From a virus, in the IMG/VR virus record IMGVR_UViG_3300037104_000796, positions 32,001-96,000 of that record: a DNA stretch of 64,000 nt; one strand, written 5' to 3'. The position numbers and the translations under genes were made by a program. Below are positions 12,569 to 63,278 of the stretch, piece by piece (the first letter of the stretch is position 1; each line of letters starts with the position of its first letter). The notes beneath the pieces are model-generated. The model had not been told where the DNA came from, ran no database searches, and worked only from the letters and a program-made list of their open reading frames with translations.

Positions 12569-12580
12569 GCCTCTTTTTTT
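12555..12580. terminator. Bidirectional intrinsic terminator shared by converging genes
   Basis: Perfect palindrome AAAAAAGAGGC-TTAA-GCCTCTTTTTT containing both stop codons. Confidence 0.85.
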
Positions 12581-16613: not shown

Positions 16614-17264
16614 TTACTGTGAGTATATTTCGCCAGTTACATTACATATTCGTAATATAGTTGCTATGTCTGGAATTAATTTTGATCCTGTTATATGTAA
16701 GTCACCTTTAATTTCTTTAGGAAAATGTTCCAATGTGCCAATAGGATTATTTGACATATACAAATCTCCAATTTTTTCAGGCATAAATTCTAATGAATAC
16801 AAACTATTATCATTAATGTACACTTCACCTTCTATTTTTGTAGCTATTCCTTCTAATGATTCTAATCCGCAATTTGATGCAGCATACGCTCCTATTACCT
16901 GTTTTGGCCCGCCTATTAATCCTGAACTTTTAAGAGGATTGCCACTGCAGAAAAATGAACCCTGAACTAATTCAGGTCCACCTTTTAAATTTTCTAAACC
17001 ACAATTATTTACATGAAAACTTCCGTTAATGTGTGCAAATTTAATATACTCGGGAAATTCTTTAATTTGTTGATGCGAAAAAACAACTGAATCATCTCCG
17101 ATAATTCTCTTTTTGGGTGTTATTCTGTATTTATGTTTTGCTACGCCATGTTCACTCATCCATTTATGAATAAGTTCATCCATACCAATACCCATATTTT
17201 TTACAGGATCGCCATCTTCGGTGAACCCTAAATATTCATTTAAAGATTCTCGAACTAATTTCAT
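16614..17264 (-). CDS. Tagged-family protein with leucine-rich-repeat-like domain
   Basis: MKLVRESLNEYLGFTEDGDPVKNMGIG leader; repeats such as NCGLENLKGGPELVQGSF and NCGLESLEGIATKIEGEV. Confidence 0.75.
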   Translation of the reverse strand: MKLVRESLNEYLGFTEDGDPVKNMGIGMDELIHKWMSEHGVAKHKYRITPKKRIIGDDSVVFSHQQIKEFPEYIKFAHINGSFHVNNCGLENLKGGPELVQGSFFCSGNPLKSSGLIGGPKQVIGAYAASNCGLESLEGIATKIEGEVYINDNSLYSLEFMPEKIGDLYMSNNPIGTLEHFPKEIKGDLHITGSKLIPDIATILRICNVTGEIYSQ

Positions 17265-20470: not shown

Positions 20471-20782
20471 TTAATTTATTTTTTTCCACCCTTTTTCGTC
20501 AGTGTTAGGTGTGCATTCTTTTTCAATTGTAACATTTATATTTGCATAATCACCATATTTAATAGCTACAGCATCTTTAATAAACATTTCAAGATCAATA
20601 CCTTCAAATGGATTTGAATCTCCTAAGCATACAAATATTTCTTCTGTAAGTTTATTGAAATAAACATCACCATATTCTCCATTACAAATAATCGCAATAG
20701 CCTCAGCATATTCTTTTAATTTCCTAATATTAACTTTTTTGGACATAATTTCTTCATTCAAAGATTCTCTAATTAATTTCAT
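20471..20782 (-). CDS. Hypothetical protein with capsid-targeting-like leader (MKLIRESLNEE)
   Basis: Leader nearly identical to 17264; late-like AATAAATAAAA upstream. Confidence 0.75.
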   Translation of the reverse strand: MKLIRESLNEEIMSKKVNIRKLKEYAEAIAIICNGEYGDVYFNKLTEEIFVCLGDSNPFEGIDLEMFIKDAVAIKYGDYANINVTIEKECTPNTDEKGWKKIN

Positions 20783-27522: not shown

Positions 27523-28219
27523 GATATTTTTTATAGGTATCGAATAATGCTTCTGGTGATAATGTTTCCCAAAGCACTACTTTTGATCCTGGGACTGTAG
27601 TTGTATGAGCGCATTCAACAATTTGATAATTTTGATAACCTTTAAGTGCTAAATAGTTATCACGAACTCTTTCCTGAAATTCAATATCATTTTCATGAAT
27701 ATCTACCTTTCCTTGAAGATAATCACGATTTTCTGCTATTTTTCTTTCTTTTAATCTTTCTTTTATAAAGTCAATTGGAACATCAAAGAAAATATTCAAA
27801 TCAGGATAAGGAAGTTCCAAAAATCCAAATTCAAATTCATCAATCCAATCTCTCATTATTTGAGATTGAGCTTCATTAAAATGTTTTGCTCCTTGAAAAG
27901 CCATGTTTGAAAATACATAGCGATCTAATAATACTACATCATTAGATAAAAGTTGTTTTTGAAGAGTGGGAAGATATAAAAATCTATCCATTGCATAAAT
28001 ATTAGCAACAAATATAGGATTGACATCATTAATACTTCCGTATTCTCCTCTTAAATAAGCTGAGATACAATTGCTAGCTTCATTATTTCCATAGATAGGG
28101 AAATGAATAAATTCATATTTAAGGCCATGTTCTTCAAAATATTTTTTAATCAGTTCAATTTGAGTAGATTTTCCACTCCCATCCAATCCTTCTAAAACTA
28201 TTAATTTTGCGCCATCCAT
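27488..28219 (-). CDS. tmk: Thymidylate (dTMP) kinase
   Basis: IVLEGLDGSGKSTQ P-loop, LLDRYVFSNMAFQG, PDLNIFFDV. Confidence 0.93.
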   Translation of the reverse strand: MDGAKLIVLEGLDGSGKSTQIELIKKYFEEHGLKYEFIHFPIYGNNEASNCISAYLRGEYGSINDVNPIFVANIYAMDRFLYLPTLQKQLLSNDVVLLDRYVFSNMAFQGAKHFNEAQSQIMRDWIDEFEFGFLELPYPDLNIFFDVPIDFIKERLKERKIAENRDYLQGKVDIHENDIEFQERVRDNYLALKGYQNYQIVECAHTTTVPGSKVVLWETLSPEALFDTYKKYLDNTLFNKPNV

Positions 28220-29106
28220 AATTCCTGATATTTATTTGTGAATATTAATTTTTTATCTTCTACCAATTGTTTTATTTCATTATGAGAAATAAGTTTTGTA
28301 CATTCTGTTAATTTATATTTAAAGTTATGTTGTTTACAAAATTCTATGGCAGCTTCTTTTTTTCTTTTTACACTATCACTATTCCATAAATTTTTTGGCT
28401 TAATTTCAACTAAAAATTTATCATTAATAAAAAAATCAGGATGATAAGTTCGTTTATTTTCTTTATAATCGACATAATCAACTTTATACTTTTTATTTTC
28501 GCCTGATTCCCATTTTAAATTAAATCGTTCTATAACATATATCATATAAGAAAGTTCTTTTAAAGAACGAAAAAACCAACTTTTATACCAGCCTGACCAG
28601 CCATTTCCGGAGCCTTGAGGTGAAGGTTTTCCAAACATATGATTGTTTTCACCTGAAGAAGCTAATGATATTTTGTTTCGTATTTTTATAGATTTTTCTA
28701 ATCCATAAATTTCTTCTAAAGTTTTTCCTTTTTGATGTAACGATGGATGATTTCCATGCCACGATCCATTAAAATTATGATTTTTTTCACCTGAAATACT
28801 TTTTGAGTGTTCAGCATTCATTTTAGACGCTAATTCATCACCATATAATTCTTCATAAGATTTTCCAGCCATTTTAGCGGCAGCACCTAATCCTGCGTTA
28901 ATATACTGTTTGTCTCTTACACCAGATAAAGCTTGTTCATGTTGTTTGCAACCTCTGCATAAATCTTTTGAATATTTTTTTAATCCAGCTTTTTGATTAC
29001 ATAAAGCAGATTTCCATTCTTTTCCACAAACATCACACTTTACAATAATAGATTGATAATTCGTTGTTGTTAAAGTTTTAAGTTGTTTAATTTCCGACAA
29101 AATCAT
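28201..29106 (-). CDS. Putative homing endonuclease, Zn-finger plus TnsA-like PD-(D/E)XK domain
   Basis: CDVC...CRGC; GKSYEELYG repeats; FRSLKE, YHPDFF...LVEIKP. Confidence 0.75.
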   Translation of the reverse strand: MILSEIKQLKTLTTTNYQSIIVKCDVCGKEWKSALCNQKAGLKKYSKDLCRGCKQHEQALSGVRDKQYINAGLGAAAKMAGKSYEELYGDELASKMNAEHSKSISGEKNHNFNGSWHGNHPSLHQKGKTLEEIYGLEKSIKIRNKISLASSGENNHMFGKPSPQGSGNGWSGWYKSWFFRSLKELSYMIYVIERFNLKWESGENKKYKVDYVDYKENKRTYHPDFFINDKFLVEIKPKNLWNSDSVKRKKEAAIEFCKQHNFKYKLTECTKLISHNEIKQLVEDKKLIFTNKYQELWMAQN

Positions 29107-29158: not shown

Positions 29159-29431
29159 TTAAGATTTATTGTTATAGAATAATTCCGATACAAATGACAT
29201 AAGTAGATTGATTGCTATACCTATGCATGCAACTTTCCAAAAATTCCAATCAGTATTAAAAATAATTTTTGTACTGTAGCCAAATATTAATACTTTGTAT
29301 ACAGTATATAACGCCAAGAATATTGCAGACAAAGATTCGACTACAGAATTTTTTGGAATATTCTCTGTAGTCGAATTTTTGTTATTTTTAAAGTCATTTA
29401 AACGGTCGCCTAAAGATTCGTTTTTAATCAT
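29159..29431 (-). CDS. Small membrane protein
   Basis: Two hydrophobic segments. Confidence 0.65.
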   Translation of the reverse strand: MIKNESLGDRLNDFKNNKNSTTENIPKNSVVESLSAIFLALYTVYKVLIFGYSTKIIFNTDWNFWKVACIGIAINLLMSFVSELFYNNKS

Positions 29432-30045
29432 TTCTTTTTGGTTTTAAGGTCAATTTTTTTAACCTCGGGTTTATCTTTTTCTTCTTCTTTCTTTTCTTCT
29501 CCAGGAGTTTCGCTAGCTTCGTGTTCTTCTTTCTTTTCTTTTTCTTCTGATTCGCCTTCTTCGTGTTCCTGGTGTTCTTTATTCTTTATATCATCTTTTG
29601 GAGCATTAGTTTTCGGTTCCCCTACTTTTGCTTCGCCAGGTTTTCCTTCTTTCTTTGGAAGTTCTTTTTTCTGAGCATTGCCTTCGTCACCTGCGAATGA
29701 TCCTTGTTCTTTTTTACCGTCTAAGGATGCAGGTTTTTTAGGATTTGGATTTTCAGCAGTTTTAACTTCTCCAAACATACCGGGTTTAAAATCTTTAACC
29801 GATTTAAGATCTGTTTGAAGATCATATCCTGGTTCGAATTTGGCACCACCCATGCTTATTTCAACTTTAACTTCTGTCTGTCCTTTTTGATATTCTCTTT
29901 TAAGCCAGTCATAAGACTTTTTATTTCCATCAGGAATAATTATGCCTTCGGCATCAGTTAAACCTTCTCCACCTGTCATCATAGGAGTTGATTCTTCATA
30001 AAGCTTGTCTAAATAGTCGTTGATGTTAAAATTACCTGCTTTCAT
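29428..30045 (-). CDS. Highly charged hypothetical protein, late-type; possible processed head protein
   Basis: Late motif at 30059-30068; N-terminal ...KLYEE; E/K/H-rich tail. Confidence 0.7.
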   Translation of the reverse strand: MKAGNFNINDYLDKLYEESTPMMTGGEGLTDAEGIIIPDGNKKSYDWLKREYQKGQTEVKVEISMGGAKFEPGYDLQTDLKSVKDFKPGMFGEVKTAENPNPKKPASLDGKKEQGSFAGDEGNAQKKELPKKEGKPGEAKVGEPKTNAPKDDIKNKEHQEHEEGESEEKEKKEEHEASETPGEEKKEEEKDKPEVKKIDLKTKKK

Positions 30046-30104
30046 AAGTATACTTTATTTTATATATCTTATATATTTTATATTAAAATGATTTTCGATT
30101 CTTT

Positions 30105-30779
30105 TTATTCGTCAAATGTTATGAATTCAAAATATTTATTCATGTTTTTTCGATCCGTTCTAAAAAAGTTAGTTTGATTAGCTTTCATGTTAGTTTCTGT
30201 ATGAAGACGTTTTATCGTATATAAAACAACTTTTACATCTTTTAATTTATCTGAAGTTTTAACATAATATACTGTTGCAAGGTTTTCATCGTATTCCGCT
30301 TTTAATACTATGATGTATTGTTTTTTATCAATTGCCTGATAATCATGTGAAGCGCCAAATCCCATATTTGGTATAAAAATTTTTATAAGCTTATTGCCTC
30401 CATTCGTATCCATGACTTCAAATTCATGTTTAGCACGAAGTATACTTCCTAATCGTAAATTATCAATGTTTCCTGTGCCAATACCCATATCTGTTATAGG
30501 ATCGCTTTCATCATTAAATTTTTCATGTAAATTTTCTTTAACTAATTTTGCTGTTTCTAAAGTATCATAAATTCTGTATTGACGATCTTTTTTACGCATT
30601 TCTATAAACTCTTTAATTTTGGCCTTTGTTCCTACAAATGTTCTATCAAATTCTTGATTATCCCAATTTCTAGTCCAAGCATAATCTATAGAATATATTT
30701 TTTTATCTATTCCTATTTTCATATCTTTAATAGGATCGCTTGCATCACTGAATTTTTCAAATACGAATTGAGCTCTCAT
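30105..30779 (-). CDS. Tagged-family protein with two tag copies (two-module polyprotein)
   Basis: VFE-KFSDASDPIKDMKIG at the start and LHE-KFNDESDPITDMGIG internally. Confidence 0.8.
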   Translation of the reverse strand: MRAQFVFEKFSDASDPIKDMKIGIDKKIYSIDYAWTRNWDNQEFDRTFVGTKAKIKEFIEMRKKDRQYRIYDTLETAKLVKENLHEKFNDESDPITDMGIGTGNIDNLRLGSILRAKHEFEVMDTNGGNKLIKIFIPNMGFGASHDYQAIDKKQYIIVLKAEYDENLATVYYVKTSDKLKDVKVVLYTIKRLHTETNMKANQTNFFRTDRKNMNKYFEFITFDE

Positions 30780-31237
30780 TATGTTTTAAAGAATTTTTCA
30801 TTAGGTTTTGGAAGTCTTGTTAATACCCATTTTTTATTATTTGGATTTTTATGACAATATGTGAGAAGTATTCCTTGAGGATATCTTTCTCCATGATTAC
30901 CATTATTACTACCTATAAGACGAGTATTCCAATGACCACGTGTTCTTCTTGCTGATGTGTCATACATCAATTTAGTTTTAGGATTGTAATTTCTAACGGG
31001 TTCTTTTTTCCAAAATTTTTCAGGATTATGTCCTTCACATTCAGTCCAAATGAAAAACTGTATTTCTGTAAGTGACGCACCTTCTTCGCCTTTTTCTTCA
31101 ATGAATTTTAGAATTTTCCAAGCTGCTCTATTCAATTGACTTTCAGGATACCCGATGTTCATATCTTTTATTGGATCTGTTACATCTGCAAACTTTTCAT
31201 TAAGGCATTCGTTGACATATTTTGCTTTCATTCGCAA
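30779..31237 (-). CDS. Tagged-family protein
   Basis: LNE-KFADVTDPIKDMNIG; late motif at 31249-31258. Confidence 0.8.
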   Translation of the reverse strand: MRMKAKYVNECLNEKFADVTDPIKDMNIGYPESQLNRAAWKILKFIEEKGEEGASLTEIQFFIWTECEGHNPEKFWKKEPVRNYNPKTKLMYDTSARRTRGHWNTRLIGSNNGNHGERYPQGILLTYCHKNPNNKKWVLTRLPKPNEKFFKT

Positions 31238-31248: not shown

Positions 31249-31713
31249 CTATATATTCAGGCAATTGTTAGGCCGTTTCCCTTTCATTCTTTCACTTTTC
31301 TTTTTATTTTGTTGCGTTGTATGTTTTCTTCCTACATTTTTTCCAATCATTGATTTACTTCGTTTTTTTCTTGTTTCTTCAGATATAGGTGTATTTGAAA
31401 GTAATTCTCGAGCATATACGTAATCTCTTGAAGAAATTTTATCTCTTCCATGTTTATCAAATGTCATTCTATGAAATGCCAAAGTAATTTTTCTATTTCC
31501 TTTATAAATATAAGTCAATAATTTATGACATACATAGTGTTCTCGAGCAGTTAATAAAATTCGATTAAATCGGTCATTACTTCCGCCTAAGCATTTCGCA
31601 ACAATATGATGATCTTCATAATAAACATACTTTGGATCGTTTTTCTTAAAACGCATTCTATTTTGAGATTTTGCGTTACTTATTATGTTATTATAGATTT
31701 TTTGATGATTCAT
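31249..31713 (-). CDS. HNH homing endonuclease (start MNHQ at 31713)
   Basis: EDHHIVAKCLGG...LLTAREHYVCH; ETRKKRSKSMIGK NUMOD3-like. Confidence 0.85.
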   Translation of the reverse strand: MNHQKIYNNIISNAKSQNRMRFKKNDPKYVYYEDHHIVAKCLGGSNDRFNRILLTAREHYVCHKLLTYIYKGNRKITLAFHRMTFDKHGRDKISSRDYVYARELLSNTPISEETRKKRSKSMIGKNVGRKHTTQQNKKKSERMKGKRPNNCLNI

Positions 31714-31734
31714 TTGTGCATGCATTACTTCAAT

Positions 31735-31764
31735 AAAAAAGCTGAGCATGTGCTCAGCTTTTAA
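31735..31764 (-). terminator. Intrinsic terminator downstream of tmRNA
   Basis: AAAAGCTGAGCA-TG-TGCTCAGCTTTT palindrome with a T tract on the minus strand. Confidence 0.8.
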
Positions 31765-32028: not shown

Positions 32029-32769
32029 TTAATATCTTTTTCCTATTTTAATTATAGGTTCATTTCTTTTAAAAATCAATTCTTCTATTTGTTCAAAATT
32101 GATATAATCATTCTCATCGACTCGAATTAAACGATAATCATTTTTTAAACACCATTCTTCAAGTAATTTGTCTTTTACTTGTTTTAGTTCCAATTGTCCA
32201 TTTATGTCTTTAAAATGCCAAATTCCATCATATTCAAAACAAACTTTTAAAATGTCTGAATACAAATCTCTTGTTAAACTTACATGATTAAATATCAGCC
32301 TTCCTCCTGTTTTCCAATGATATTGAGGATAAGTGATTTTAAAATAATCTACTATATTTCGTTCTGTTTTTGATGAGAATTTTTTATTTTTGCTTTGTTT
32401 TTCAAAATACGAATCATTATCATATTTTCCTTCTTTCCAGGCCTTTGCAACAGATTTGCTTGTTTGCGCTTTACTTTCTTCTGTTCTTTTTCGTAGTTTA
32501 TTAGCGCAAGAAATGCTACAAATTTGCTTTGTTATAGGCTTATTTTCTCGGTGTCTTACAGTAAATTCTTTTCCACAAATTACACAATGAAGTTTTTCTT
32601 TAATGATTTTTCCTCCATTTAAATTTTCTTCTCTTTCGATAAATTTGGCTCGAGAAAGTTCTTTGGATTTCAAATTTTTATATGCGTATCCTAAATGTTT
32701 CCATCTGTGATGATTTGCTTTTGCTTGAAAAGTTTCAAATTCAATTCCACATTCTTCACATTTATACAT
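32029..32769 (-). CDS. Putative homing endonuclease: C2H2/CxxC zinc fingers plus Vsr/DUF559-like nuclease domain
   Basis: CEECG..F......HHRWKH; SKTE, CFEYDGIWHF, KDKLL...YRLIRV. Confidence 0.75.
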   Translation of the reverse strand: MYKCEECGIEFETFQAKANHHRWKHLGYAYKNLKSKELSRAKFIEREENLNGGKIIKEKLHCVICGKEFTVRHRENKPITKQICSISCANKLRKRTEESKAQTSKSVAKAWKEGKYDNDSYFEKQSKNKKFSSKTERNIVDYFKITYPQYHWKTGGRLIFNHVSLTRDLYSDILKVCFEYDGIWHFKDINGQLELKQVKDKLLEEWCLKNDYRLIRVDENDYINFEQIEELIFKRNEPIIKIGKRY

Positions 32770-33260: not shown

Positions 33261-35075
33261 TTACAATCCTAAATCTGTTCCACCTGTGTCTCCACCTGTT
33301 TCACCACCAACTTCTCCACCACCTGCTTCACCACCCGGTTCTTCAGGTGCTCCGCCGCCTAAGTCCATTCCTGCACCGGCTCCAAAGTCCATTCCTCCAC
33401 CGCCTCCGCCAAGGTCTCCGCCGCCAGCTCCTTCATCTCCTGTACCTTTAGTAGCATTTACACGTTTAACAGCATCTGCAATACGGGTAAGTTGTTCTCT
33501 TCTTTCTTTCTTATATCTTTCATTGATCTTGATATCTTCATCAGTAAAGTTCATGTATCTTTCAACCAAGAATTTAGGGTCAAAATACATACCTTCATTT
33601 GTGATATTTCCTTCACCATCAACTTCTGGCTGATGTACACCCATAAGGGTATTGACCATTTCAGCACCTTTGCCATCAATATCTCTTTTCTTAGCTTCTG
33701 TAAATAAGTTTTCTTCAACGAATTCAAGACTGATTGCACCTCTTAAAGATTTATCTTTAATGAATACAGGGTGTTTGAGACAGAACTGAATCCATGTAGG
33801 TTTCATTAAAATTTCTTGCATAATAGAACGAATTCTATTGATGAAATAATTGAAACGAATTTCTTCTCTTGCAATACCTTCGCCACCTGATGACCAATTT
33901 GCTCCACCACCGCCTTCATCTCCAGTTGATTGGAATCTGTCTTTTGGAATTTTAGTTTCGATAATGAATCTCTTCCAGAAATAATCAAGTGCCATAGTTC
34001 CTGATAAGTCATATCCTGCAGGTTGAATAGAATCTATAATTGTTTCTTGACCTTCTTTTGAAGGTATAATGTATTGTTTTGCGAATGAGAAGTTTGGTGT
34101 TCCGTTAATTGTAACTTCACCACTATGATAATCAATTGTGATATCCTCTTTGTACATACCACGTAATTCAGAAAGTCTTGTTCTTGCTTTTACTTCTGAT
34201 TGTGTACCGATTGGAACTACAATTTTCATACGATATTGTGAGTTAACAACGTTCCAAATAATACGTGAATTTTCCATTGTACGTAACATATTGAATGCTC
34301 TTACAAGTCTTTCAACGTATGATAATCTTGATATGAAGTTTCCCCTAGCCCATGATATGTAAATTACGTTTCCATCAACTAATTCTCTTTGTCTTTCAGC
34401 ATCACCTCTAAACTGAATCCATACTCGATATTCATTATCATTTTCATCTTTACGAATTTCTGGTTCAAGAGAGCAAGGATCAAGTTCTTTAAAACCTAAA
34501 ATGTTTTTTGCATCTTCACTGTTTTCACCATCGTAAATAATTTCAAATGCCAAGAATCCATCAATAAGGAATTTTTTAGTGTAATGCCATCCATCATGGC
34601 CTTGATTAAATCCGAATGCATAATAAACTTTCTTATATGCTTCATTAAGGTCATCAACAATTTCTTTAGCTTTTTCAGCTTTAAGAACTGATTTAAGTTT
34701 TTGCGTATTAGGATAAGCAAAAAAGTTATTATCGTCCTGAACAATTGTTTCGTCTGCAATAACTTCGATAACGTGTTCTATTTCTCCATTCATAGCAAAT
34801 CTACGAAGGAAATCTCTTCTTGTAGGATATTCTTTATCAAAGAAAGCAATAAATTCTTTTGCTCCAATGTCCATACCTGATGCCAACTGATGTTGACCAT
34901 AAAGGCTATACATTGAATCTTCTTGTACTTCAGTAATACCAATTGATTTAGATTGCTTAATAATATTTTGATCCCATCGCATTCCGATAATTGACAAATA
35001 ACGAATATTTCGTTGAATGTTATCTATAAAAGAACGAGGTCCTCTGTCTAAATTTCTAAGTCCGAATCCGGCCAT
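33261..35075 (-). CDS. Portal protein (T4 gp20-like)
   Basis: EIEHVIEVIADE, FLIDG.L.F, SYVERLVRAFNMLRTMENSRIIW, IAREEIRFNYFINRIR; Gly/acidic C-tail; late motif at about 35093-35103. Confidence 0.9.
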   Translation of the reverse strand: MAGFGLRNLDRGPRSFIDNIQRNIRYLSIIGMRWDQNIIKQSKSIGITEVQEDSMYSLYGQHQLASGMDIGAKEFIAFFDKEYPTRRDFLRRFAMNGEIEHVIEVIADETIVQDDNNFFAYPNTQKLKSVLKAEKAKEIVDDLNEAYKKVYYAFGFNQGHDGWHYTKKFLIDGFLAFEIIYDGENSEDAKNILGFKELDPCSLEPEIRKDENDNEYRVWIQFRGDAERQRELVDGNVIYISWARGNFISRLSYVERLVRAFNMLRTMENSRIIWNVVNSQYRMKIVVPIGTQSEVKARTRLSELRGMYKEDITIDYHSGEVTINGTPNFSFAKQYIIPSKEGQETIIDSIQPAGYDLSGTMALDYFWKRFIIETKIPKDRFQSTGDEGGGGANWSSGGEGIAREEIRFNYFINRIRSIMQEILMKPTWIQFCLKHPVFIKDKSLRGAISLEFVEENLFTEAKKRDIDGKGAEMVNTLMGVHQPEVDGEGNITNEGMYFDPKFLVERYMNFTDEDIKINERYKKERREQLTRIADAVKRVNATKGTGDEGAGGGDLGGGGGGMDFGAGAGMDLGGGAPEEPGGEAGGGEVGGETGGDTGGTDLGL

Positions 35076-35093
35076 TTTTGATAGTTATTTATT

Positions 35094-35816
35094 TTATATA
35101 TTTAACGTGACATTTAGTTTTGTTTTATTGTCTACATTATAATGTTGTCCTCTTTTTGATTTAATCATATTTTCAATAAACATTTTATATTTTGAAGTTC
35201 CTTCAATTTCTCCATATTTTTCAATAAATCCTTGTAATCTTGATTTATCTTTTCTTTCTTTTAATTTACTTATATACGTATTATATAAAATTAATCCTTC
35301 AGTTTCTCCATATCTTTTTGAAAAATGATATAAATTATTTTTTCCTTCTGTACTGTGTTTGATTTTATCTATCGTTTTTTGTGTTACTATTTTTCCAATA
35401 TGCGAAATACTTAAATTGTGTTTATGATCTTCAGAAAAACTTTGTCCTTTTTTTCCATTACTTATTTTTTTTCGTGTTTCTGTTGACATTTGTAAAGACG
35501 ATAATAATTCTTTTGCGTATGCATAATCTCTAGATGAAACTATATTTCCATATCTTTTATTAAATGACATATAGAAGAATGCTTGAGCTATTTTTCTATT
35601 TTCTTTATAAATGTATGTTAGTAATTTATGACAAACAAAATGTTCTCTAGCAGTTAATAAAACTTTATTATTTTGATCTTCATTTACTCCAATACATTTA
35701 GGTAAAATATGATGATTTTCATAATAAATATAGCCTATTTGATTTTTCTTTATTCTAATTCTATTTTCAAATTTTGCTTTTTGAATTATAGTTTCGTAAA
35801 CTTTTTGATGATTCAT
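35094..35816 (-). CDS. HNH homing endonuclease
   Basis: ENHHILPKCIG...LLTAREHFVCH; ETRKKISNGKKG. Confidence 0.85.
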   Translation of the reverse strand: MNHQKVYETIIQKAKFENRIRIKKNQIGYIYYENHHILPKCIGVNEDQNNKVLLTAREHFVCHKLLTYIYKENRKIAQAFFYMSFNKRYGNIVSSRDYAYAKELLSSLQMSTETRKKISNGKKGQSFSEDHKHNLSISHIGKIVTQKTIDKIKHSTEGKNNLYHFSKRYGETEGLILYNTYISKLKERKDKSRLQGFIEKYGEIEGTSKYKMFIENMIKSKRGQHYNVDNKTKLNVTLNI

Positions 35817-35818
35817 TT

Positions 35819-36523
35819 TTATTTATTAGCGTTTTTATTGTCCCAATATGTTCTGTGAATTTCAGCTATGTTAATTTTCTTAAATGATTGCTGAGCATCA
35901 TAAAAAGGTATGTATTTCCATTCTTCATATTCAATCATTCTAAACTTTGCCAAATTTTGTAAGTGATATGATCGATAAGCATATTCAAAAAATGCTCCTT
36001 GTTGGTCATTAAATTGTTTAAAAAGTTGTGGGTTTTTACCTGTTAAAGAAATTATCATGTAATTTATGTTGACTGCCAATTTGTTATACTCTGTTTTCTC
36101 TTCTATTCTATCAAGAAATAATTTATAGTTATTAAAATATGCTTGTAAAAATTTCAATCTTTCTGAAGATGGCAACATCGTTAGATTCAATCCTTTCATT
36201 AAAGCTGTCATTGGATTAAATGAAGTACAAAAACAGATAGGTGTAAAATCGTGAAACTGAATAGTTTTTCCGGTTTTAAGATTTTGAAGTTCCTGTAAAT
36301 TATTAGGACTTAAATTGATAAATGTGTAAATCATTCCTGGGACAGGTCTTCCAAAAGCTAATCTTTTAACAAGTGATTCTTGATCTGTAGATTCAATATC
36401 AATTAGTTTGTGATCACCCTTTAAATCATATTTCAAATACGTATTAAACAAACGATCATACGCGACATCACGAATGTTATCTATATGTTTTAATTTTTCA
36501 TATGTATCTTTGGGTGAGTCCAT
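35819..36523 (-). CDS. DNA end protector-like protein (T4 gp2-like)
   Basis: PGMIYTF, FHDFTPI, GLNLTMLP..RLKFL pattern; near the gp4-like gene as in T4-like phages. Confidence 0.55.
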   Translation of the reverse strand: MDSPKDTYEKLKHIDNIRDVAYDRLFNTYLKYDLKGDHKLIDIESTDQESLVKRLAFGRPVPGMIYTFINLSPNNLQELQNLKTGKTIQFHDFTPICFCTSFNPMTALMKGLNLTMLPSSERLKFLQAYFNNYKLFLDRIEEKTEYNKLAVNINYMIISLTGKNPQLFKQFNDQQGAFFEYAYRSYHLQNLAKFRMIEYEEWKYIPFYDAQQSFKKINIAEIHRTYWDNKNANK

Positions 36524-37182
36524 TATGCATTATTTTGTTTGCAATTCTCTCCGTGATATTTTTTAAAATTTCCCGGATCAATTTCTCTATGACAGTGAGG
36601 ACATAATTTTTTGATACGTTTAAGTGCCCCTTTTTCATAATTTTTAATTTGTTCTTTTGTACGATGTTTCCCAGATAATGATTTTGAAAGTTTTAACGTA
36701 TATTCTTTCATTTTTTTATCAGCTTTTTCTTTTCCTAATGTGTTAAACCAATGATCATATACAGATATACCATGCATGCCATTTTTATTTCCCTTTCGAG
36801 AATTGCCCATTTTGTCTTTTGTTTCTTTTGATGCTGTTAACCCCGTATGAGCCTTACGTATTTTATTTTTTGATTCTTCTGAATGTTTAAAACAATTTTT
36901 AACACAAAGTCCGCCCGTAGGACTTATATTATAGCCTATAGGCACTAATGTGTTATATTTAACTATGTATTTTTCTTGTGCGTCAAATGCTTCTTTTTTT
37001 GTTTCAAAAAATTCTAGAATTTCCTTTTTAAAATTTTGTCTATCATATTTATTTAAAGCTCTAATAATATTTCCACTACCTAAATATGTATCATTTAAAT
37101 CATCAGTAGAATGATCACCCACATATTGCTTTCCGTTTATTGAATTTGTAGTAATATAAACAAAATTAAATTTTTTCTCCAT
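36523..37182 (-). CDS. GIY-YIG homing endonuclease
   Basis: FVYITTNSINGKQYVG..YLGSG..FKKEILE..GYN; CPHC...YHGENC. Confidence 0.88.
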   Translation of the reverse strand: MEKKFNFVYITTNSINGKQYVGDHSTDDLNDTYLGSGNIIRALNKYDRQNFKKEILEFFETKKEAFDAQEKYIVKYNTLVPIGYNISPTGGLCVKNCFKHSEESKNKIRKAHTGLTASKETKDKMGNSRKGNKNGMHGISVYDHWFNTLGKEKADKKMKEYTLKLSKSLSGKHRTKEQIKNYEKGALKRIKKLCPHCHREIDPGNFKKYHGENCKQNNA

Positions 37183-37816: not shown

Positions 37817-38167
37817 TTATATATTGTAGATTTTATTTCCGCTTACCGATATTTTTTTACTCTTTGGCATATTTCCATAAAGTTTTCTCCACCCCTTTGC
37901 AAATCCGTTCTTAATTATTTGGGTGAAATATGCAAATGCATTTTGAGATTTATTTGGATCATAACCTCTCCAATACTGAAAACAATCCATAACTGCAAAA
38001 GCAATGCAATCTTCTCGATCCTCAGGATAAATGTAATTTAGTTTGGTAGAGAACTTCTTAGCCATTAACATAAACATATCTAATGCTTCTCTCGTTAATT
38101 CATTAGTTGCTTTACATTTTATAATTTCGTTTCTGAGATCACTATTCTTAACGTGGTGCGTCGCCAT
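37817..38167 (-). CDS. Late transcription sigma factor (T4 gp55-like, compact)
   Basis: HVKNSDL, REDCI, YDPNKSQNAFAYFTQIIKNGF, matching the gp55 NPFAYFTQI signature. Confidence 0.85.
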   Translation of the reverse strand: MATHHVKNSDLRNEIIKCKATNELTREALDMFMLMAKKFSTKLNYIYPEDREDCIAFAVMDCFQYWRGYDPNKSQNAFAYFTQIIKNGFAKGWRKLYGNMPKSKKISVSGNKIYNI

Positions 38168-41691: not shown

Positions 41692-42270
41692 TTAATAATT
41701 TTTTTTATATTTGCCCCTGGGCTTTCCTTTATGGGCTTTTCTTTGTTTATTCTTTGTTTCGTCTGATACTATATGATTCATTAAAGAATTACTTTGGTTT
41801 TTCTTTGTTTCTTCTGAATGTATTTTCCCTATATGAGATATACTCATTAAATGTTTTGTTTCTTCAGTTCTTGTTTTTCCAGTATTCTTTTTTACTCTTT
41901 TTTCTATTATTTCTTTGCTTTGTGTTAAACCTTTATTCCATGCAGGTATTCCTGCCATGTGAAAACTTAAATTTGTGTTAGGCAAATAACGATTATAGCC
42001 ATTAGGAGCCAATGTGTTAAATTTTAAAATATACTCTGATTCACTATTAAGCATATCTTTTGCATTTTCATAATCACTTTGCAAAATTTCCTTTTTAAAA
42101 TTTTCTTTTCCGTATTTTTCGTAATCTTTATTGAGATATTTACTTGATCCCCAATAAATGTCATCTTTTATTTTATCTCTGTAACATACTCTACTACCTA
42201 TATACTGCTTGTTTGTTATTATGTTTGTTATGATATATACGTAATAAAAACATACAGTTCTAGCCCTCAT
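41692..42270 (-). CDS. GIY-YIG homing endonuclease with NUMOD3 repeats
   Basis: YVYIITN..TNKQYIGSR, YWGSS, GYN; repeated EETK..MS.SH.GK. Confidence 0.87.
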   Translation of the reverse strand: MRARTVCFYYVYIITNIITNKQYIGSRVCYRDKIKDDIYWGSSKYLNKDYEKYGKENFKKEILQSDYENAKDMLNSESEYILKFNTLAPNGYNRYLPNTNLSFHMAGIPAWNKGLTQSKEIIEKRVKKNTGKTRTEETKHLMSISHIGKIHSEETKKNQSNSLMNHIVSDETKNKQRKAHKGKPRGKYKKNY

Positions 42271-43698: not shown

Positions 43699-46440
43699 TT
43701 AAATTTTATTAGTATTCTTGAGTTCTTTTTTTAAAAAATCAGTCCATTCTCTTCTTGTTTGTTCATCTAAATCAGGATCACTTTCTATTTCCCAAATCCA
43801 GCCTTCCGGTCCGGACAACCATGACGCATCGCCTTCTTTAACTTTTTTATCAGCATAATTTTGAATAATTTTAAGTAAGCCAATGCGCATATCTCTTATA
43901 GGATCAGATTCTTCTGCAAAGGTTTCATTCATACGTAACTTAAAAATCCATCTATTTTGAATAGCCTTTTGTTTGTCAACATTATAAAATGCAGCTAATA
44001 TATGAATAAGTGCTTGTTCTGATCCTGTAAAAATTAATCCGGCAATACCTGATTTATATTCATCTTTCATTTTATATGTTACGCCTGATTTTTTAAAGAA
44101 GTCTCCAACTTCGTTGCCTTCTATACTTTCAATATCATTTTTGTCGGGTTTGAATTTGGTCATTCCATATAATGGAATTGTTCGATATCCTGAGCCAATA
44201 CCCATATCTTTAATAGCATCTGTATCTTCTTTGAATTTTTCATTTATCATATTGCCTTTATCGTCACACATCCATGATTGTAATTCAGGGTGAAGTTTTT
44301 TCAATGCCACGTGTACTTGTTCATAATTTACTACTTGAGGTTTGCTATTAACAGTTAAATACTTTTGAACATATTTTGCTAATCGATTCAGTTTTGATTC
44401 TAAATTTACTTTAAAATAGAGATAATAACTGCTATTAGTGTCATTTAAAATATTTTCTGGAAGATTTTTTATTTTAAGAATAGCTGATAACATTTCTGCG
44501 ATAAACATATCCATTGCTTTTTGAGATTTAAAATCATGAGGACCATATAAACCAATTCCCATACTATGAACTGGGTCTCCTTCTTCTGAAAACTTTTCAT
44601 TAACATGTGCATCAGCCATCACAATTGTTAATCGATTTAATTTTCTGGTCATTGCATCAACAGCAACACCTTTATCATTTTTAAAGCCTTTTACGTTAAT
44701 CATATGTTCTATTTCATCAAAAAATTTATTCTTTGAGTATTCTTTACATATAATCGTATATACTGTATTCCCTAATGCATTTTTATCATATTCTACTGTT
44801 GTTTCATCACCAAACAAAACATAACGAATGTAATCAATGTAATCAACTCCACCGTGTACGTATTTAACTGGAAATAAATTCATTATCTCTTCTTTGAAGT
44901 GATTAGCTCCAATATTCATATCAGCTATAGCATCACCTTCTTCTGAGAATTTTTCATTTACAGATTCTTTTAGGTTTTTTATTTTCCAGTTAGGAACGAT
45001 CTCAAGATATTTTTCGATAAACTCTTTATCTAATGACCATTGATGATAAACTAACTTATTTAAATGTTTTAATGATTTTCTTAAATCCATAAGATCATCG
45101 CAACTATAATAAAAAACACTGGTAATGTCTCCATCAAGATTTCTGAATATTTTATTAAGAATAACATATGAATTTTTAGGATGACTTTGGTTGATAGTTT
45201 TTTTAACTCGTACAATACTTCCTCGTTTTGCATCATCCCAATCGATATCGCCTATACCCATATCGTGAATTGGATCAGAATCAATTACAAATTTTTCATT
45301 TACATTTTTCTTTTCAAAATAAGGATTGACATCTAAGAAAAATTTAATTTCCAACATCTCTGCAACCTTTGTAAGAATTTTAAGTCTTATTTTAGGATCG
45401 TCATAGTCCTTCATTTTCATCTCAAGAGCAGTTATTTCTTCAAAAGATTTTTGAGGAGTTATACGTGGATGTTCAATTAAATTTTTAACAGTATGATACA
45501 TTACTCTTACAAGAGGTACTGCGTATCCTTCGTATTCTTTTGAACATGTTTTTTTGTAATATAATCGATATAAGTCCATGCAACTTCCCGGCGGAATCGA
45601 ATACAAAATCTTTTTTAAACGCTCAATACCACCAATATGCATATCTCTTATGGGATCGCCAACTTCTTCTGAAAATTTTTCGTTAAGGTCAGGATATTTC
45701 CACGATTTTAATTCAGGATGTTTTAATTTGAAAACATATGAAAAATCTAGCCAATCAAATATGTCTTTTCCGTCAACTCTAACGAAATCCTTTATATATT
45801 TTCTTAATGTATTAGCACAACGTCGTTGTTCGGCATAATCTTCTGCAAAAAATATGAAAATATTTTCTTCTGGATCATTTAAAATATTTTCAGGAATTTC
45901 ATCTATATCAAGTATTGCTGTTAAATTTTCAACAATAAATTCATACATTTTATTCGGCGTATCAAAATCTTTATGCGCATACAATCCTATTTTCATATCC
46001 TTTATAGGATCCGATTCTTCTTTGAATTTCTCATTGACTGATTCATTTACATTTATATCAATGCCAAAATGTTTTTTAAGAGCATTAGCAATATCTTTCT
46101 GTATTTCATATTTAGATGGATAAAGCCCCTCTACCAAATCAACAATGCCATTAGCCTTTTTTTTACAAGCTCTTTCAAATGCAATTTGAGGAGAATTTCC
46201 TTTAATTAAATATTTTAAAATATCACATAAACAATACATTTTTTGCCAAACACATTTGTCGCGTCTATTGATAGGTTTTTTTCTATCATCAAAATAGTCA
46301 TAATATACGCGAGATGGAGCTGCATCATTTATCTTTTTTGCATGTTCTTTCCATATTTTACGAGCGCCAATTCCCATATCCTTAATAGGATCAGATTGAT
46401 CTGTGAATTTTTCGTAAAGATTTTCTTTGATGGGTTCCAA
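43699..46440 (-). CDS. Eight-module tagged polyprotein (TTG start)
   Basis: Eight copies of xE-KF....DP[IV].DM.IG at about 120-aa spacing; late motif GAATAAATAA at 46456-46465. Confidence 0.85.
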   Translation of the reverse strand: MEPIKENLYEKFTDQSDPIKDMGIGARKIWKEHAKKINDAAPSRVYYDYFDDRKKPINRRDKCVWQKMYCLCDILKYLIKGNSPQIAFERACKKKANGIVDLVEGLYPSKYEIQKDIANALKKHFGIDINVNESVNEKFKEESDPIKDMKIGLYAHKDFDTPNKMYEFIVENLTAILDIDEIPENILNDPEENIFIFFAEDYAEQRRCANTLRKYIKDFVRVDGKDIFDWLDFSYVFKLKHPELKSWKYPDLNEKFSEEVGDPIRDMHIGGIERLKKILYSIPPGSCMDLYRLYYKKTCSKEYEGYAVPLVRVMYHTVKNLIEHPRITPQKSFEEITALEMKMKDYDDPKIRLKILTKVAEMLEIKFFLDVNPYFEKKNVNEKFVIDSDPIHDMGIGDIDWDDAKRGSIVRVKKTINQSHPKNSYVILNKIFRNLDGDITSVFYYSCDDLMDLRKSLKHLNKLVYHQWSLDKEFIEKYLEIVPNWKIKNLKESVNEKFSEEGDAIADMNIGANHFKEEIMNLFPVKYVHGGVDYIDYIRYVLFGDETTVEYDKNALGNTVYTIICKEYSKNKFFDEIEHMINVKGFKNDKGVAVDAMTRKLNRLTIVMADAHVNEKFSEEGDPVHSMGIGLYGPHDFKSQKAMDMFIAEMLSAILKIKNLPENILNDTNSSYYLYFKVNLESKLNRLAKYVQKYLTVNSKPQVVNYEQVHVALKKLHPELQSWMCDDKGNMINEKFKEDTDAIKDMGIGSGYRTIPLYGMTKFKPDKNDIESIEGNEVGDFFKKSGVTYKMKDEYKSGIAGLIFTGSEQALIHILAAFYNVDKQKAIQNRWIFKLRMNETFAEESDPIRDMRIGLLKIIQNYADKKVKEGDASWLSGPEGWIWEIESDPDLDEQTRREWTDFLKKELKNTNKI

Positions 46441-46463
46441 GAATTGATATTTGTTTTATTTAT

Positions 46464-48185
46464 TCACTCAACGATTACGATTCGTTTCATAAATTCTGGA
46501 GGAAATGCTTTTCGATTATTGTGTATTAAATCAGCCATTGCCCCATCTAAAATGTAAGTGACTGCCCAGTCATCTTCGCTTCTTACACTTCTACCAGTTC
46601 CTTGCAAAATATTGATGATCGCTTTCCAGCGATACCATTCGGGATTTATTTTTAATTTCGTTGCTACAAATTTATCGCCTAAAGACAGATATGGAACTTT
46701 AGCAAATATTGCAAACCTACTCCAATCATCTTTTAAGTCTAAACCTTCCAATAATGACGGACCCATAAGTACTTTATTTTTATTTACTTTTAGCATTTCA
46801 AGCACTTGTCGTTTTTCTTCTGTCCCATTATAAACTAAAATTCTTCTTTTATTTTTATGTGAAAGTCCATTATGAATTTTTAATGCAAGATCATATGATG
46901 CTGTATGAATGATTCCACTTTCGCCTACATGATTTTCAAGTATCTTATCAATAGTTTCATAAAGCCATGGAAGATTACCCTCTATTTGATTATAAGTCAT
47001 TCTTCTTTTGTTGTAAAAATAAATTGGAGACTTTGTAAAATCAAAATGCGAATCCATTTTAATGTACTTAGCAGTTTTTAAAGAAATACTTCTAAGATAA
47101 TTTGAAGGGTCTGCAAATGTAGCCGACATTAACACTGTGAATCCTGTCCATTGATGAAAATATTTATGCATCATATATGATTCTTCCAAACAATTAAATG
47201 TCAATTCATCTTTGCCTGTAGGATTTTTTACAATATTTCGAGTTGAAGTTTTTTCAATAATGTCATTATAGTCATCAACTTTGCAATGTAAATCTTTAAC
47301 CCAATCACATAAACGTAAAGCTTCCTTCCATTCTTTTGGAGGATCATCATGCGGATAATCAGTTTTAACTTTTTCTTTGAATTTCTCCCAAGTAACTCTA
47401 TAATTGTGCTGGAGATTGTTTTTGATCTCTATTAGGATTTCATGTAAGTTATCTTGATTATCTGTCTTATATAAACTACCAATATCTTCTTTAATATCGC
47501 TTAAGTCTTTATAATGATCATGCAATTTATAAAGTTTAAAAAAATCTGTAAGTTTTTGCAACTTTTCAATTGTCTTGGGATCAAATCGAGGTGAATAATG
47601 ATTTTGAACTATATCGAGAATTTTGTGGCCTTCATCACATATCGTAAAATCACGAGGTGGAAATGGAGTATCATCCATGCTTTGATTAACATAATTCATC
47701 ATTATCAACCAATATGCATAATTCAATAAAGCAGTTTCAGATCCTGAAGCTTTATCTCTTGCTGAAAAATAAGGACAATGATGATAACATGGCATTCGTT
47801 TTGCGGGTTTATTTCTTATACGACAAGTTCCTAAAGAATTCTTTTCCATATTGTCTAAGCAAATATAGTTGTCAATTCCCTTAATGGAACCCCATCTAAA
47901 ATTTCCTTTTGCAAAATCTTTTTCGTATTGTTCTTGGAGTGATAAATCTGATGCGAGAATAAATCCTTTCAATTCTTGTTGATTAAGAATCCATGCAACA
48001 GCCATGCCTATAATAGATTTTCCTGAACCTACCGGAGCATCTAATATAACTGTTTTAGTTTTATTATAATATGCCTTAATAATTTCGATTATTGCTTCTT
48101 TTTGTCCTTTACGCCAAACGAACTCATCGCCAAAAAATGTAGTGCGGAATTCTTCTATTTGTAACTCTAACTGTTCTATAGTCAT
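46464..48185 (-). CDS. DinG/Rad3 (XPD)-family helicase
   Basis: Q motif RKGQ, Walker A APVGSGKS, Cys cluster, DEGH, MSAT, EGLD, QGTGRSVRSEDD. Confidence 0.9.
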   Translation of the reverse strand: MTIEQLELQIEEFRTTFFGDEFVWRKGQKEAIIEIIKAYYNKTKTVILDAPVGSGKSIIGMAVAWILNQQELKGFILASDLSLQEQYEKDFAKGNFRWGSIKGIDNYICLDNMEKNSLGTCRIRNKPAKRMPCYHHCPYFSARDKASGSETALLNYAYWLIMMNYVNQSMDDTPFPPRDFTICDEGHKILDIVQNHYSPRFDPKTIEKLQKLTDFFKLYKLHDHYKDLSDIKEDIGSLYKTDNQDNLHEILIEIKNNLQHNYRVTWEKFKEKVKTDYPHDDPPKEWKEALRLCDWVKDLHCKVDDYNDIIEKTSTRNIVKNPTGKDELTFNCLEESYMMHKYFHQWTGFTVLMSATFADPSNYLRSISLKTAKYIKMDSHFDFTKSPIYFYNKRRMTYNQIEGNLPWLYETIDKILENHVGESGIIHTASYDLALKIHNGLSHKNKRRILVYNGTEEKRQVLEMLKVNKNKVLMGPSLLEGLDLKDDWSRFAIFAKVPYLSLGDKFVATKLKINPEWYRWKAIINILQGTGRSVRSEDDWAVTYILDGAMADLIHNNRKAFPPEFMKRIVIVE

Positions 48186-48206: not shown

Positions 48207-48245
48207 ATTGTATGATAAAAAAAGGCTTAAGTTTTACTTAAGCCT
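48207..48245 (-). promoter_or_regulatory. Fused terminator/promoter (AAAACT-N17-TACAAT) upstream of the DinG helicase
   Basis: Hairpin AGGCTTAAG...CTTAAGCCT plus T7; -35 at 48230-48235, -10 at 48207-48212. Confidence 0.7.
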
Positions 48246-48485
48246 GTATTTTTTATGATGTGTTACTTTTTTATTTAGCCAATCTCGTAATTTAACATTT
48301 AATTTGTACAAATCCTCTTCATTGTGGATACGTGGATAAACAGTTTGTGTAATATGCGCTACTACGTTATCAAAATAATGATCAACAACTACACCCGATC
48401 TACTTGGACGACCAATACCCATATCTTTAATGGGATCAGATTCTTCTCTAAAATCTTCGTCAATATGTTCTTTTACAATATTCAT
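48234..48485 (-). CDS. Tagged-family small protein
   Basis: MNIVKEHIDE-DFREESDPIKDMGIG. Confidence 0.8.
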   Translation of the reverse strand: MNIVKEHIDEDFREESDPIKDMGIGRPSRSGVVVDHYFDNVVAHITQTVYPRIHNEEDLYKLNVKLRDWLNKKVTHHKKYRLK

Positions 48486-51282: not shown

Positions 51283-51326
51283 TGAACAGTCTTTGTTTTA
51301 TATATCCCAAGCAAAAAGGAGAATGT

Positions 51327-62234: not shown

Positions 62235-62924
62235 TTATTTTACGAATTGACGAAATGGAAATTTAACATAATATGTGCCATAGTTTTTGTATAAACTTAC
62301 ACCATTATTTCTTGCAGTTGTTGCTATTCTTGACATTGTACTACCCAAATATCTTTTATTATAGCCGGTAACATTCTCGGGTCCTCCTGAAGTATAGCCA
62401 CTATAACTTGCTCCTTCAACATGAGGAATATCAACGAATAAACCTTCATTACTCTCATAAGGATATGGCGACATAGTACTTATACGTACATCCATTCCAA
62501 AAACTCTTTTCATATGTTTAACAAACTTTTCTGCGAAAGGCATTACAATTGCTCTTTTTCTATCGAGTTCGGCTTCGTATTTTGCTTTATCATCAGCAAC
62601 TTTTTCTTTTTTAACGCTGCCGGCTTCTTCATGTCCTAACGATACTGCTTTTTCAAGAAATATCTGAGCAACTCTTGAATCTTTACCTGCAATTTGTGCA
62701 GCAGCTAAATAACGACGATAGGCTTTTTCTTTATCTTTGATTAACTTACACATCGTTTCAGCTAGATCAGTAGCAGAAACATGTCTTTTCTGTTGAGCTT
62801 TTGTAAAAATATCATTAACTCTTTGGATATCTTTAGCATCAGGTTTTTGTCCAATACCTAAATCATGAATAGGATCTGAATCTTCTACAAATTTTTCATA
62901 CAATTGTTCTCTTACTAATTTCAC
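62235..62924 (-). CDS. Tagged-family protein, paralog of 62934 with extra C-terminal domain (GTG start)
   Basis: MKLVREQLYE-KFVEDSDPIHDLGIG; LAETMCKLIKDKEKAYRRYLAAA. Confidence 0.8.
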   Translation of the reverse strand: MKLVREQLYEKFVEDSDPIHDLGIGQKPDAKDIQRVNDIFTKAQQKRHVSATDLAETMCKLIKDKEKAYRRYLAAAQIAGKDSRVAQIFLEKAVSLGHEEAGSVKKEKVADDKAKYEAELDRKRAIVMPFAEKFVKHMKRVFGMDVRISTMSPYPYESNEGLFVDIPHVEGASYSGYTSGGPENVTGYNKRYLGSTMSRIATTARNNGVSLYKNYGTYYVKFPFRQFVK

Positions 62925-62933: not shown

Positions 62934-63278
62934 TTATTTTATACCAGCAAGTTCGCCAGCTCTTTTAAGAAATACTCTTGTTACGTCCCAATGCTCGCCT
63001 CCAATCTTGGCAGCTGCAACATAACGTCTATATGCTTTTTTAGGGTCTTGAATTAATTTGCCCATGGTGGTTGCTAGTGAAATTTCTTTTTTAGAATTTC
63101 CTCCGGCTTTTGAAACAATAGCTTCGACACGCATTCTATCTTTTGGTTCAGGACTGACCCATCGATATTTTTTTTGTAATTCGTCTCTGTATTTTGGTAA
63201 TAGGCCGATGCCTAAATCCATGATAGGATCACTTTCTTCTGAAAACTTTTCGTATAACGATTCTTTTACAAGTTTCAC
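62934..63278 (-). CDS. Tagged-family protein (GTG start)
   Basis: MKLVKESLYE-KFSEESDPIMDLGIG; LATTMGKLIQDPKKAYRRYVAAA. Confidence 0.8.
   Translation of the reverse strand: MKLVKESLYEKFSEESDPIMDLGIGLLPKYRDELQKKYRWVSPEPKDRMRVEAIVSKAGGNSKKEISLATTMGKLIQDPKKAYRRYVAAAKIGGEHWDVTRVFLKRAGELAGIK

Follow-up and report, generated by a model that had tools for sequence, protein, structure and literature searches.

Beyond phage T4 and the phiKZ group, how giant phages select protein cargo and load it into their heads is largely unknown. In T4, the internal proteins IPI-III, Alt and gp24 bear capsid-targeting sequences (CTS) that are removed by gp21 (Mullaney and Black 1996, as described in PMC5694885), and these sequences are propeptides of 10–20 residues (PMC5694885). 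In phiKZ, 201phi2-1 and SPN3US, paralogous ejection or inner-body proteins are processed; heads of the phiKZ group are large and hold >50 protein species, and their cargo is cleaved after Glu by a gp21-related protease (PMC5694885, PMC10052503). The SPN3US cargo paralogues gp53 and gp54 begin with the same 15 residues, among them two candidate Glu sites (MANFVKSKLARESVE) (PMC5694885). A further class, the polyvalent proteins, comprises 2–15 unrelated domains, is encoded near late or virion genes, and is expected to travel in the virion and be delivered together with the DNA, in some cases after proteolytic processing (Iyer et al. 2017, PMC5512222). Here we describe a 913-amino acid (aa) open reading frame (ORF) that consists of eight modules, each headed by a copy of one short peptide tag, and that may be a cleavable array of capsid cargo. 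The ORF lies in the 64,000-nucleotide stretch that we analyzed (the window), which comprises bases 32001–96000 of the 162,358-bp IMG/VR virus record IMGVR_UViG_3300037104_000796 (G000, rated ~40% complete); a complete relative with terminal repeats (G001) spans 405,016 bp.

The ORF is on the minus strand, with a TTG start at 46440 and a stop codon that ends at 43699 (Table 1). Its eight tags follow the pattern [LIVM]-x-E-(K/T)-F-x(3-4)-D-(P/A)-(I/V)-x-(D/S)-M-x-I-G, are ~19–25 residues long, and are spaced 315–381 nt (~105–127 aa) apart, with one at each of the eight module junctions; copy 1 is N-terminal and the other seven are internal. The tripeptide [LIVM]-x-E immediately precedes (K/T)F in all eight, its middle residue being Asn in seven and Tyr in copy 1, and Asp-Ala replaces Asp-Pro in two. 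An original prediction, made from the sequence alone, had described these eight copies, and each was recovered where it had been placed. None would be expected by chance: the motif expression matched 8 times in the ORF versus 0 in 2,000 residue shuffles of it, and 14 times in the window versus 0 in 200 window shuffles.

The original prediction also held that the intervening domains mostly differ, and this proved correct; the sole resemblance is that between modules 2 and 6 (35% identity, E = 3e-16). AlphaFold models were made of modules 3 and 6, each with its flanking tags, with 15 and 29 homologues, respectively. Module 6 was predicted as a compact alpha/beta body, with a mean predicted local distance difference test score (pLDDT) of 82–97, mostly ≥90, in 10-residue blocks, and module 3 as an all-alpha body (pLDDT 81–94). 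The tags flanking module 6 scored 54–63 and were modeled as coil with one helical turn at D-P-x-x-D-M, and those flanking module 3 scored 42–51 and showed the same single turn. In both models the folded domain starts right after G-I-G, and in both the tag appears as a flexible linker joining unrelated folded domains. These models and the comparisons that follow present the modules as independent cassettes, not as one repeat fold.

The cassettes are shuffled among relatives. Module 4 of the ORF is module 1 of protein P0003 and module 1 is P0003 module 7; modules 5-7-8 reappear as modules 1-2-3 of P0040, and modules 3-5-7 constitute P0076. In G001, a member of the module 2/6 family is encoded by itself, in a tagged gene of 114 aa. 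Gene order at the locus (SbcC, small genes, helicase, polyprotein, a 450-aa gene and a ~740-aa gene) is conserved in three relatives, and the polyprotein slot holds eight modules here, ~10 (1,203 aa) in the second relative and ~5 (754 aa) in the third, where the polyprotein contains ankyrin repeats. Module number and order thus vary, with 1–10 tag copies per protein, as the original prediction had proposed that a profile search would reveal.

What the modules do is not apparent from similarity. Pfam and PHROG searches gave no family for the 913-aa ORF or the small tagged genes; Foldseek (PDB and BFVD) and a VIA-align wide search retrieved nothing related to module 6 (best E 1.5; best Z 3.1), Foldseek against PDB retrieved nothing related to module 3, and phmmer against PDB was uninformative for the 451-aa and 738-aa neighbours of the ORF. 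Among 51 tagged proteins of G001, the cargo types found were ankyrin repeats (seven) and one domain of unknown function. The basic charge of module bodies is barely above the genome background (median isoelectric point 8.8 versus 8.2).

The tag is not confined to this ORF. Including a variant with D-L in place of D-M, 16 copies are present in eight ORFs of the window and at least 21 in the 162-kb record, in agreement with the original prediction that the same motif opens stand-alone genes. A profile built from 13 window copies retrieved 1,481 representative proteins (E ≤1e-3) among 1.84 billion, with the 913-aa ORF and the 1,203-aa relative at the top ranks. G001 contains 88 tag hits, and at least 53 distinct tagged ORFs lie within the 221 kb of it that were examined; in these the tag is nearly always at the extreme N-terminus, after one of two leaders, MKLVREHINE or MKAQYVFE. 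Leaders of stand-alone tagged genes and of copy 1 are 8–10 aa long.

The consensus of 543 instances, whose median spacing is 124 aa, reads hydrophobic(92%)-N(66%)-E(96%)-K(85%)-F(96%)-x-E-x-S(79%)-D-P(96%)-I(81%)-x-D(96%)-M/L-G(76%)-I(98%)-G and is preceded by a weaker hydrophobic-(K/R)-E-x pattern. In 553 tags the first residue of the tripeptide is hydrophobic in 99% and the middle one is Asn in 67%, the Glu being fixed by the way instances were selected. Codon choice within the tag is free at synonymous positions (Ser codons come from both families, and four codons each are used for Pro and Gly), and selection therefore acts on the peptide and not on the DNA; a DNA-level recombination linker was rejected on the same ground. 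Searches of 50,697 GenBank phage records by tblastn with the ORF (E limit 1e-5) and with a leader-plus-tag peptide (E limit 1) gave no match, and a literature search with tag fragments returned nothing relevant. The tag family is large, real, widespread and undescribed. Separately, three proteins begin with a leader and lack KF..DPIxDMGIG (20471–20782, MKLIRESLNEE..; 13229–14893, MKKLVPESIEE..; 12565–13227, MKIVRESIIEE..; all minus strand), one of them a 554-aa ATPase. Since such leader-only proteins exist, the two halves of the tag are separable.

The timing of expression was approached through a motif, class L, with the consensus (G/A)ATATATAAAATAAA, which stands 0–20 nt ahead of ~45 start codons, including those of structural genes and of most homing-endonuclease genes. 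With a weight matrix built from 25 seeds, it scored 20.6 bits before the portal gene, 17.0 before head closure, 14.0 before tail sheath, 17.0 before a tube-like gene, 21.4 before a highly charged scaffold-like protein and 16.5 before the 451-aa neighbour of the ORF. The late-type promoter that the original prediction placed upstream of the ORF is a class-L match (Table 1), and only 30 of ~325,000 positions on both strands of the record score ≥14.0 bits. Each of the seven tagged transcription units of the record is preceded by a class-L-like match, five scoring ≥11.5 and the lowest 7.4. The ORF is the first gene of a run that proceeds toward the neck and portal genes. The T4 late promoter is TATAAATA. 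Class L is most likely a late promoter, judging by its likeness to that of T4 and by the gp55-like sigma factor encoded nearby, and the 913-aa ORF is likely expressed late. A second upstream element, ATTTGTC(G/A)(G/A)N5-6TTGTTATATTTA, was seen at ~10 intergenic sites of the record (for example, 64647 in window numbering, minus strand, beyond the window end) and may represent an early or middle promoter class.

The window's helicase shares 44% identity with the one encoded by a 462-kb uncultured phage and ~31% with Lak megaphage helicases; the tag-bearing phage clade is related to the Lak megaphages, not to phiKZ. Genes of the window include those for portal, head-closure, tail sheath and tube-like proteins, a gp55-like late sigma factor and many homing endonucleases. 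In G001, the N-terminal domain of a 781-aa protein matches Peptidase_S77 (61 bits, E = 2e-17); its alignment with T4 gp21 (E = 1e-11) spans the motifs of the catalytic His and Ser, GEL(D/N)HP and (I/V)SSR. The remainder of the protein is a long scaffold-like region with a weak Pfam Peptidase_S80 match. A gp23-type capsid gene, 48% identical to the Lak capsid gene, follows this protease-scaffold gene, and two tagged genes lie directly upstream of it, where T4 has its prohead-core genes gp67 and gp68. The portal gene of the window is followed by two tagged genes and then by a hyper-charged 205-aa protein. This charged, low-complexity protein (29428–30045, minus strand) has a strong late-type motif and is itself a candidate scaffold or core protein. 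A 381-aa protein outside the window has, in its C-terminal part, a stretch (..LVKEDMGGVSAPMSTPMNTPGMG..; G000:C1:160682-160804, minus strand) that is 38% identical to residues 39–90 of the G001 major capsid protein.

The tripeptide that opens the tag recurs in the scaffold. [LIVM]-N-E occurs 11 times in the 781-aa protein versus 0.9 expected from the record background (P = 4e-9), and in 120 scaffold homologues it averages 10.4 occurrences with an observed/expected ratio of 7.8, the highest of twenty hydrophobic-x-E triplets, these being statistics from related, non-independent sequences. Many of the sites are invariant columns of the scaffold alignment. The T4 scaffold gp22, which gp21 degrades, contains 16 [LI]-x-E in 269 aa. 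Middle-position preferences of tags and scaffolds are weakly correlated (Spearman 0.40, P = 0.08), with Asn first in both. The G001 capsid protein has L-N-E at residues 41–43, which MAFFT does not align with the Glu65 maturation site of T4 gp23. A complex prediction of the 781-aa protein with a 40-aa leader-plus-tag peptide, both with alignments, scored 0.00 and was informative neither way. Six protease-scaffold homologues carry an insert in the scaffold: that of P0209 is an ankyrin module, and those of P0173, P0176, P0193, P0199 and P0239 are unrelated, 60–139 aa long and near residue 600. This insertion point is a hot spot for accessory domains on a prohead core protein, and because one insert is an ankyrin module, accessory domains that include the ankyrin cargo type can ride on the prohead core.

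The explanation that we favor, with a probability of roughly 0.4, is that the ORF is a fused array of eight cargo cassettes under bipartite tags for prohead loading and protease release. The first part of the tag, hydrophobic-(K/R)-E-x-hydrophobic-N-E (at gene starts MKLVREHINE or MKAQFVFE), resembles T4 capsid-targeting propeptides and would offer Glu sites to the clade's gp21-type prohead protease. The second part, KF-x-E-x-S-D-P-I-x-D-(M/L)-G-I-G, would be an unstructured linear motif that probably docks on a common partner, most plausibly the prohead core or the shell interior. The polyprotein would be made late, its tags would bring it into proheads, and the exposed linkers would be cut at or close to hydrophobic-N-E. 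About eight small proteins of 9–15 kDa would thereby be freed; they would remain inside the head and may be passed to the host along with the DNA. We infer targeting, the exact bond cut, packaging and ejection. The late-promoter-like motif, the protease-scaffold, the tripeptide enrichment and the T4-like leaders are circumstantial evidence for a role in the capsid.

Several observations weigh against this explanation, in addition to the non-independence of the tripeptide counts. Lys stands right after the proposed scissile Glu in 90% of tags, and the commonest residues after [LIVM]NE in scaffolds are S, W, N, D and V, with Lys outside the top ten; the exact bond cut is therefore uncertain, and cutting might instead take place at the upstream hydrophobic-(K/R)-E-(S/H) site. 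Fifteen further residues after the Glu are conserved, for which a three-residue protease site cannot account. A 405-kb genome with at least 53 tagged ORFs (88 hits) would have very many packaged species, and tagged genes are dispersed, many of them adjoining replication and recombination genes. The tag was not found in Lak-A2, Tenacibaculum phage pT24, LR756500 or LR756501, nor, in three relatives with a 58–71% identical protease-scaffold, at a distance of up to 10 kb from the protease gene. Relatives with the same head genes thus do without the tag, and head assembly in the lineage therefore does not need it; the tag is accordingly a clade-specific addition to older head machinery. Finally, neither a Peptidase_S77 match nor a capsid gene was found in the window's own ~40%-complete record. 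The original prediction of a cleavable cargo cassette is partly sustained: independent, shuffled cassettes, a late-promoter-like motif and the [LIVM]-N-E enrichment of the protease-fused scaffold speak for it, and the gp21-like protease that it expected elsewhere in the genome was located in the complete relative G001 and not in the record itself.

A broader form of the favored explanation, in which the tag is a clade-wide bipartite sorting and processing peptide carried by at least 10% of genes, singly or in polyproteins of up to ten cassettes, for prohead loading and protease release, is less likely than not, and we advance it tentatively. The tag might instead dock a common non-capsid partner (a host protein, a phage hub or a chaperone), with the ORF remaining an uncleaved string of beads that acts as a multivalent effector array in the cell. 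The 15-residue KF..DPIxDMGIG core is conserved far beyond what a protease site needs, the tag is predicted to be disordered like motifs that fold upon binding, and the ankyrin repeat, a protein-binding fold, is the sole recognizable cargo. The dispersal of tagged genes, at least 10% of those in G001 and often beside replication or recombination genes, and the sister lineages with the same head machinery and no tag fit such a partner as well. However, every tag retains a hydrophobic-x-Glu site, and the tripeptide is singularly enriched in the prohead scaffold; tagged genes carry the class-L motif common to virion genes, and some occupy the gp67/gp68 position of the head cluster. The same domains also work as single genes, and multivalency is therefore not required. 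We regard a non-capsid docking tag as less likely than capsid loading but as a serious rival to it.

Less probable still, though also a serious rival, is a true polyprotein that is not capsid cargo, cut by another phage or host protease elsewhere, for example after G-I-G, to give equimolar cytoplasmic or exported products. The length and conservation of the tag are like those of leader peptides with dedicated proteases (cf. double-glycine leaders), the folded domain starts straight after G-I-G in both models, and the tag is spread more narrowly than the S77 protease clade, as a separate clade-specific enzyme would predict. However, the regions examined held no second candidate protease and no signal-peptide-like or transporter context, and the residue following G-I-G, hydrophobic in ~60% of tags, is part of the domain's first structural element. 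It is very improbable that the tag separates modules by itself, through labile Asp-Pro cleavage or a 2A-like translational skip. Asp-Pro is present in 96% of copies, and the element has about the length of a viral 2A peptide and sits exactly at module junctions; on the other hand, the D(V/I)ExNPGP signature is missing, the tag consensus ending D-(M/L)-G-I-G, two of the eight copies in the ORF are Asp-Ala, and in stand-alone genes only a 15–25-residue leader would be removed, with no obvious benefit. To our knowledge, a self-acting separator of such a kind has no bacterial precedent. The last alternative, that the whole ORF forms one structural protein of the repeat or solenoid type with the motif integral to its fold, as the original prediction allowed and the regular ~105–127 aa spacing might suggest, has a negligible chance, because the tags lie at low confidence (pLDDT 42–63) outside and between the different, compact folds of modules 3 and 6, and modules that are dissimilar except for 2 and 6 are also found singly and reordered.

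The tag would make head loading a testable question: the peptide is compact and near-invariant, hundreds of small domains that are unrelated to one another bear it, and there are candidates for both the protease and the scaffold. Should it serve for loading and release, the effectors that a widespread uncultured phage clade injects could be read from sequence alone. Tailed phages would then be able to use polyproteins, and this would be their first known strategy based on a polyprotein with several cargoes. The tag would likewise offer a natural, modular and portable means of packaging foreign proteins, and its second half, KF..DPIxDMGIG, would bind a receptor. If the tag instead docks elsewhere, it nevertheless identifies a large effector family that shuffles fast and has a common target worth finding.

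The remaining features of the window are listed in Table 1. Just past the window end lie six tagged genes in a translationally coupled array. At its head is an 843-aa protein of no known family (L078:4039-6570, minus strand, equivalent to G000:C1:102038-104569), with a single tag 80 residues from its C-terminus, and five further tagged genes follow. GIY-YIG and HNH homing-endonuclease genes are unusually dense among the structural genes, and several have a late-type motif. ARAGORN detected no tRNA and no tmRNA in the window.

Table 1. Positions of the 913-aa ORF, its tags and modules, and other features, in window numbering (core, DPIxDMxIG; Asp, residue number of the Asp of the D-P core; module limits are approximate residue numbers).
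Feature	Position	Strand	Remarks
913-aa ORF, eight tag-plus-module units	43699..46440	-	
Tag 1 (LYE-KFTDQSDPIKDMGIG), N-terminal copy	46366..46419	-	core 46366-46392; Asp 17; module 1, ~aa 8-134
Tag 2 (VNE-KFKEESDPIKDMKIG)	45985..46038	-	core 45985-46011; Asp 144; module 2, ~aa 135-252
Tag 3 (LNE-KFSEEVGDPIRDMHIG), one residue longer	45631..45687	-	core 45631-45657; Asp 262; module 3, ~aa 253-379; low AlphaFold pLDDT
Tag 4 (VNE-KFVIDSDPIHDMGIG)	45250..45303	-	core 45250-45276; Asp 389; module 4, ~aa 380-493; low AlphaFold pLDDT
Tag 5 (VNE-KFSEEGDAIADMNIG)	44908..44961	-	core 44908-44934; Asp 503; module 5, ~aa 494-612
Tag 6 (VNE-KFSEEGDPVHSMGIG)	44551..44604	-	core 44551-44577; Asp 622; module 6, ~aa 613-731; AlphaFold pLDDT 54-63
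Tag 7 (INE-KFKEDTDAIKDMGIG)	44194..44247	-	core 44194-44220; Asp 741; module 7, ~aa 732-836; low AlphaFold pLDDT
Tag 8 (MNE-TFAEESDPIRDMRIG)	43879..43932	-	core 43879-43905; Asp 846; module 8, ~aa 837-913
Late-promoter-like class-L motif of the ORF, 22 nt	46447..46468	-	14.0 bits; ends 6 nt before TTG; overlaps helicase stop codon
Further class-L motif, before portal gene	35085-35106	-	
Further class-L motif	30051-30072	-	
Further class-L motif	51289-51310	-	
Stand-alone tagged gene, 83 aa (MNIVKEHIDE-DF..DPIKDMGIG)	48234..48485	-	
Stand-alone tagged gene, 119 aa	50923..51282	-	own class-L motif, 20.7 bits
Tagged gene, 152 aa, downstream of portal gene	30779..31237	-	
Two-tag gene, 224 aa, downstream of portal gene	30105..30779	-	
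Tagged gene, 216 aa (MKLVRESLNE-YLGF..DPVKNMGIG)	16614..17264	-	
Tagged gene, DL variant (..DPIHDLGIG)	62235..62924	-	
Tagged gene, DL variant (..DPIMDLGIG)	62934..63278	-	
Portal protein gene	33261..35075	-	G001 orthologue in Portal_T4 family; class-L motif 20.6 bits
gp55-like late sigma factor gene	37817..38167	-	phrog_234, E 3.8e-16
Homing-endonuclease genes (GIY-YIG/HNH)	28201-29106, 31249-31749, 32029-32769, 35094-35816, 36523-37182, 41692-42270	-	
Homing-endonuclease genes (GIY-YIG/HNH)	2569-3273, 3957-4805, 8984-9739	+	

Similar to the T4 CTS, the tag leaders are N-terminal, 8–10 residues long, start with M-K, end in hydrophobic-x-Glu and stand on otherwise unrelated small proteins; the T4 propeptides MKTYQEFIAE (ipII, ipIII) and MAKINELLRE (gp24) match MKLVREHINE in length and Glu pattern. 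The clade also has, like T4, a gp21-type protease, a T4-type portal and a gp23-type capsid protein, and some of its tagged genes lie between portal and protease. In contrast to the T4 CTS, the tag leaders have no sequence homology to T4 leaders, the Glu is followed by 15 residues that are far more conserved and would be retained after maturation, the tag is also internal, with up to ~10 copies per protein, and there are dozens of tagged genes versus about six in T4. The phiKZ group differs in that its propeptides are mostly 100–250 residues long with the cleavage motif (A/S/G)-x-E, and the papers on that group report neither a multi-cargo polyprotein nor a motif of the KF..DPIxDMGIG type.

Like the polyvalent proteins, the ORF combines distinct modules, eight in this case, in a late or virion gene context. 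However, polyvalent proteins have recognizable enzymatic conflict domains and often their own peptidase, whereas the modules of the 913-aa ORF are small orphan domains, and a uniform tag marks its junctions. With the polyproteins of picornaviruses and potyviruses it shares a single ORF, several independently folding units and a repeated candidate recognition sequence at the junctions; it differs from eukaryotic RNA-virus polyproteins in belonging to a DNA phage, in having modules that would be accessory cargo and not replication or capsid proteins, and in that its units also exist as separate genes. Encapsulin cargo-loading peptides offer a further analogy, being short, conserved, Gly-containing, disordered peptides on diverse cargo, and by that analogy the tag would be a candidate for docking on an HK97-fold shell; the two have no sequence relationship, and encapsulin peptides are terminal and single. 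Thus, the tag system is a member of none of the known systems, and conceptually it is close to three of them: the T4 CTS, the phiKZ-like paralogues and the polyvalent proteins.

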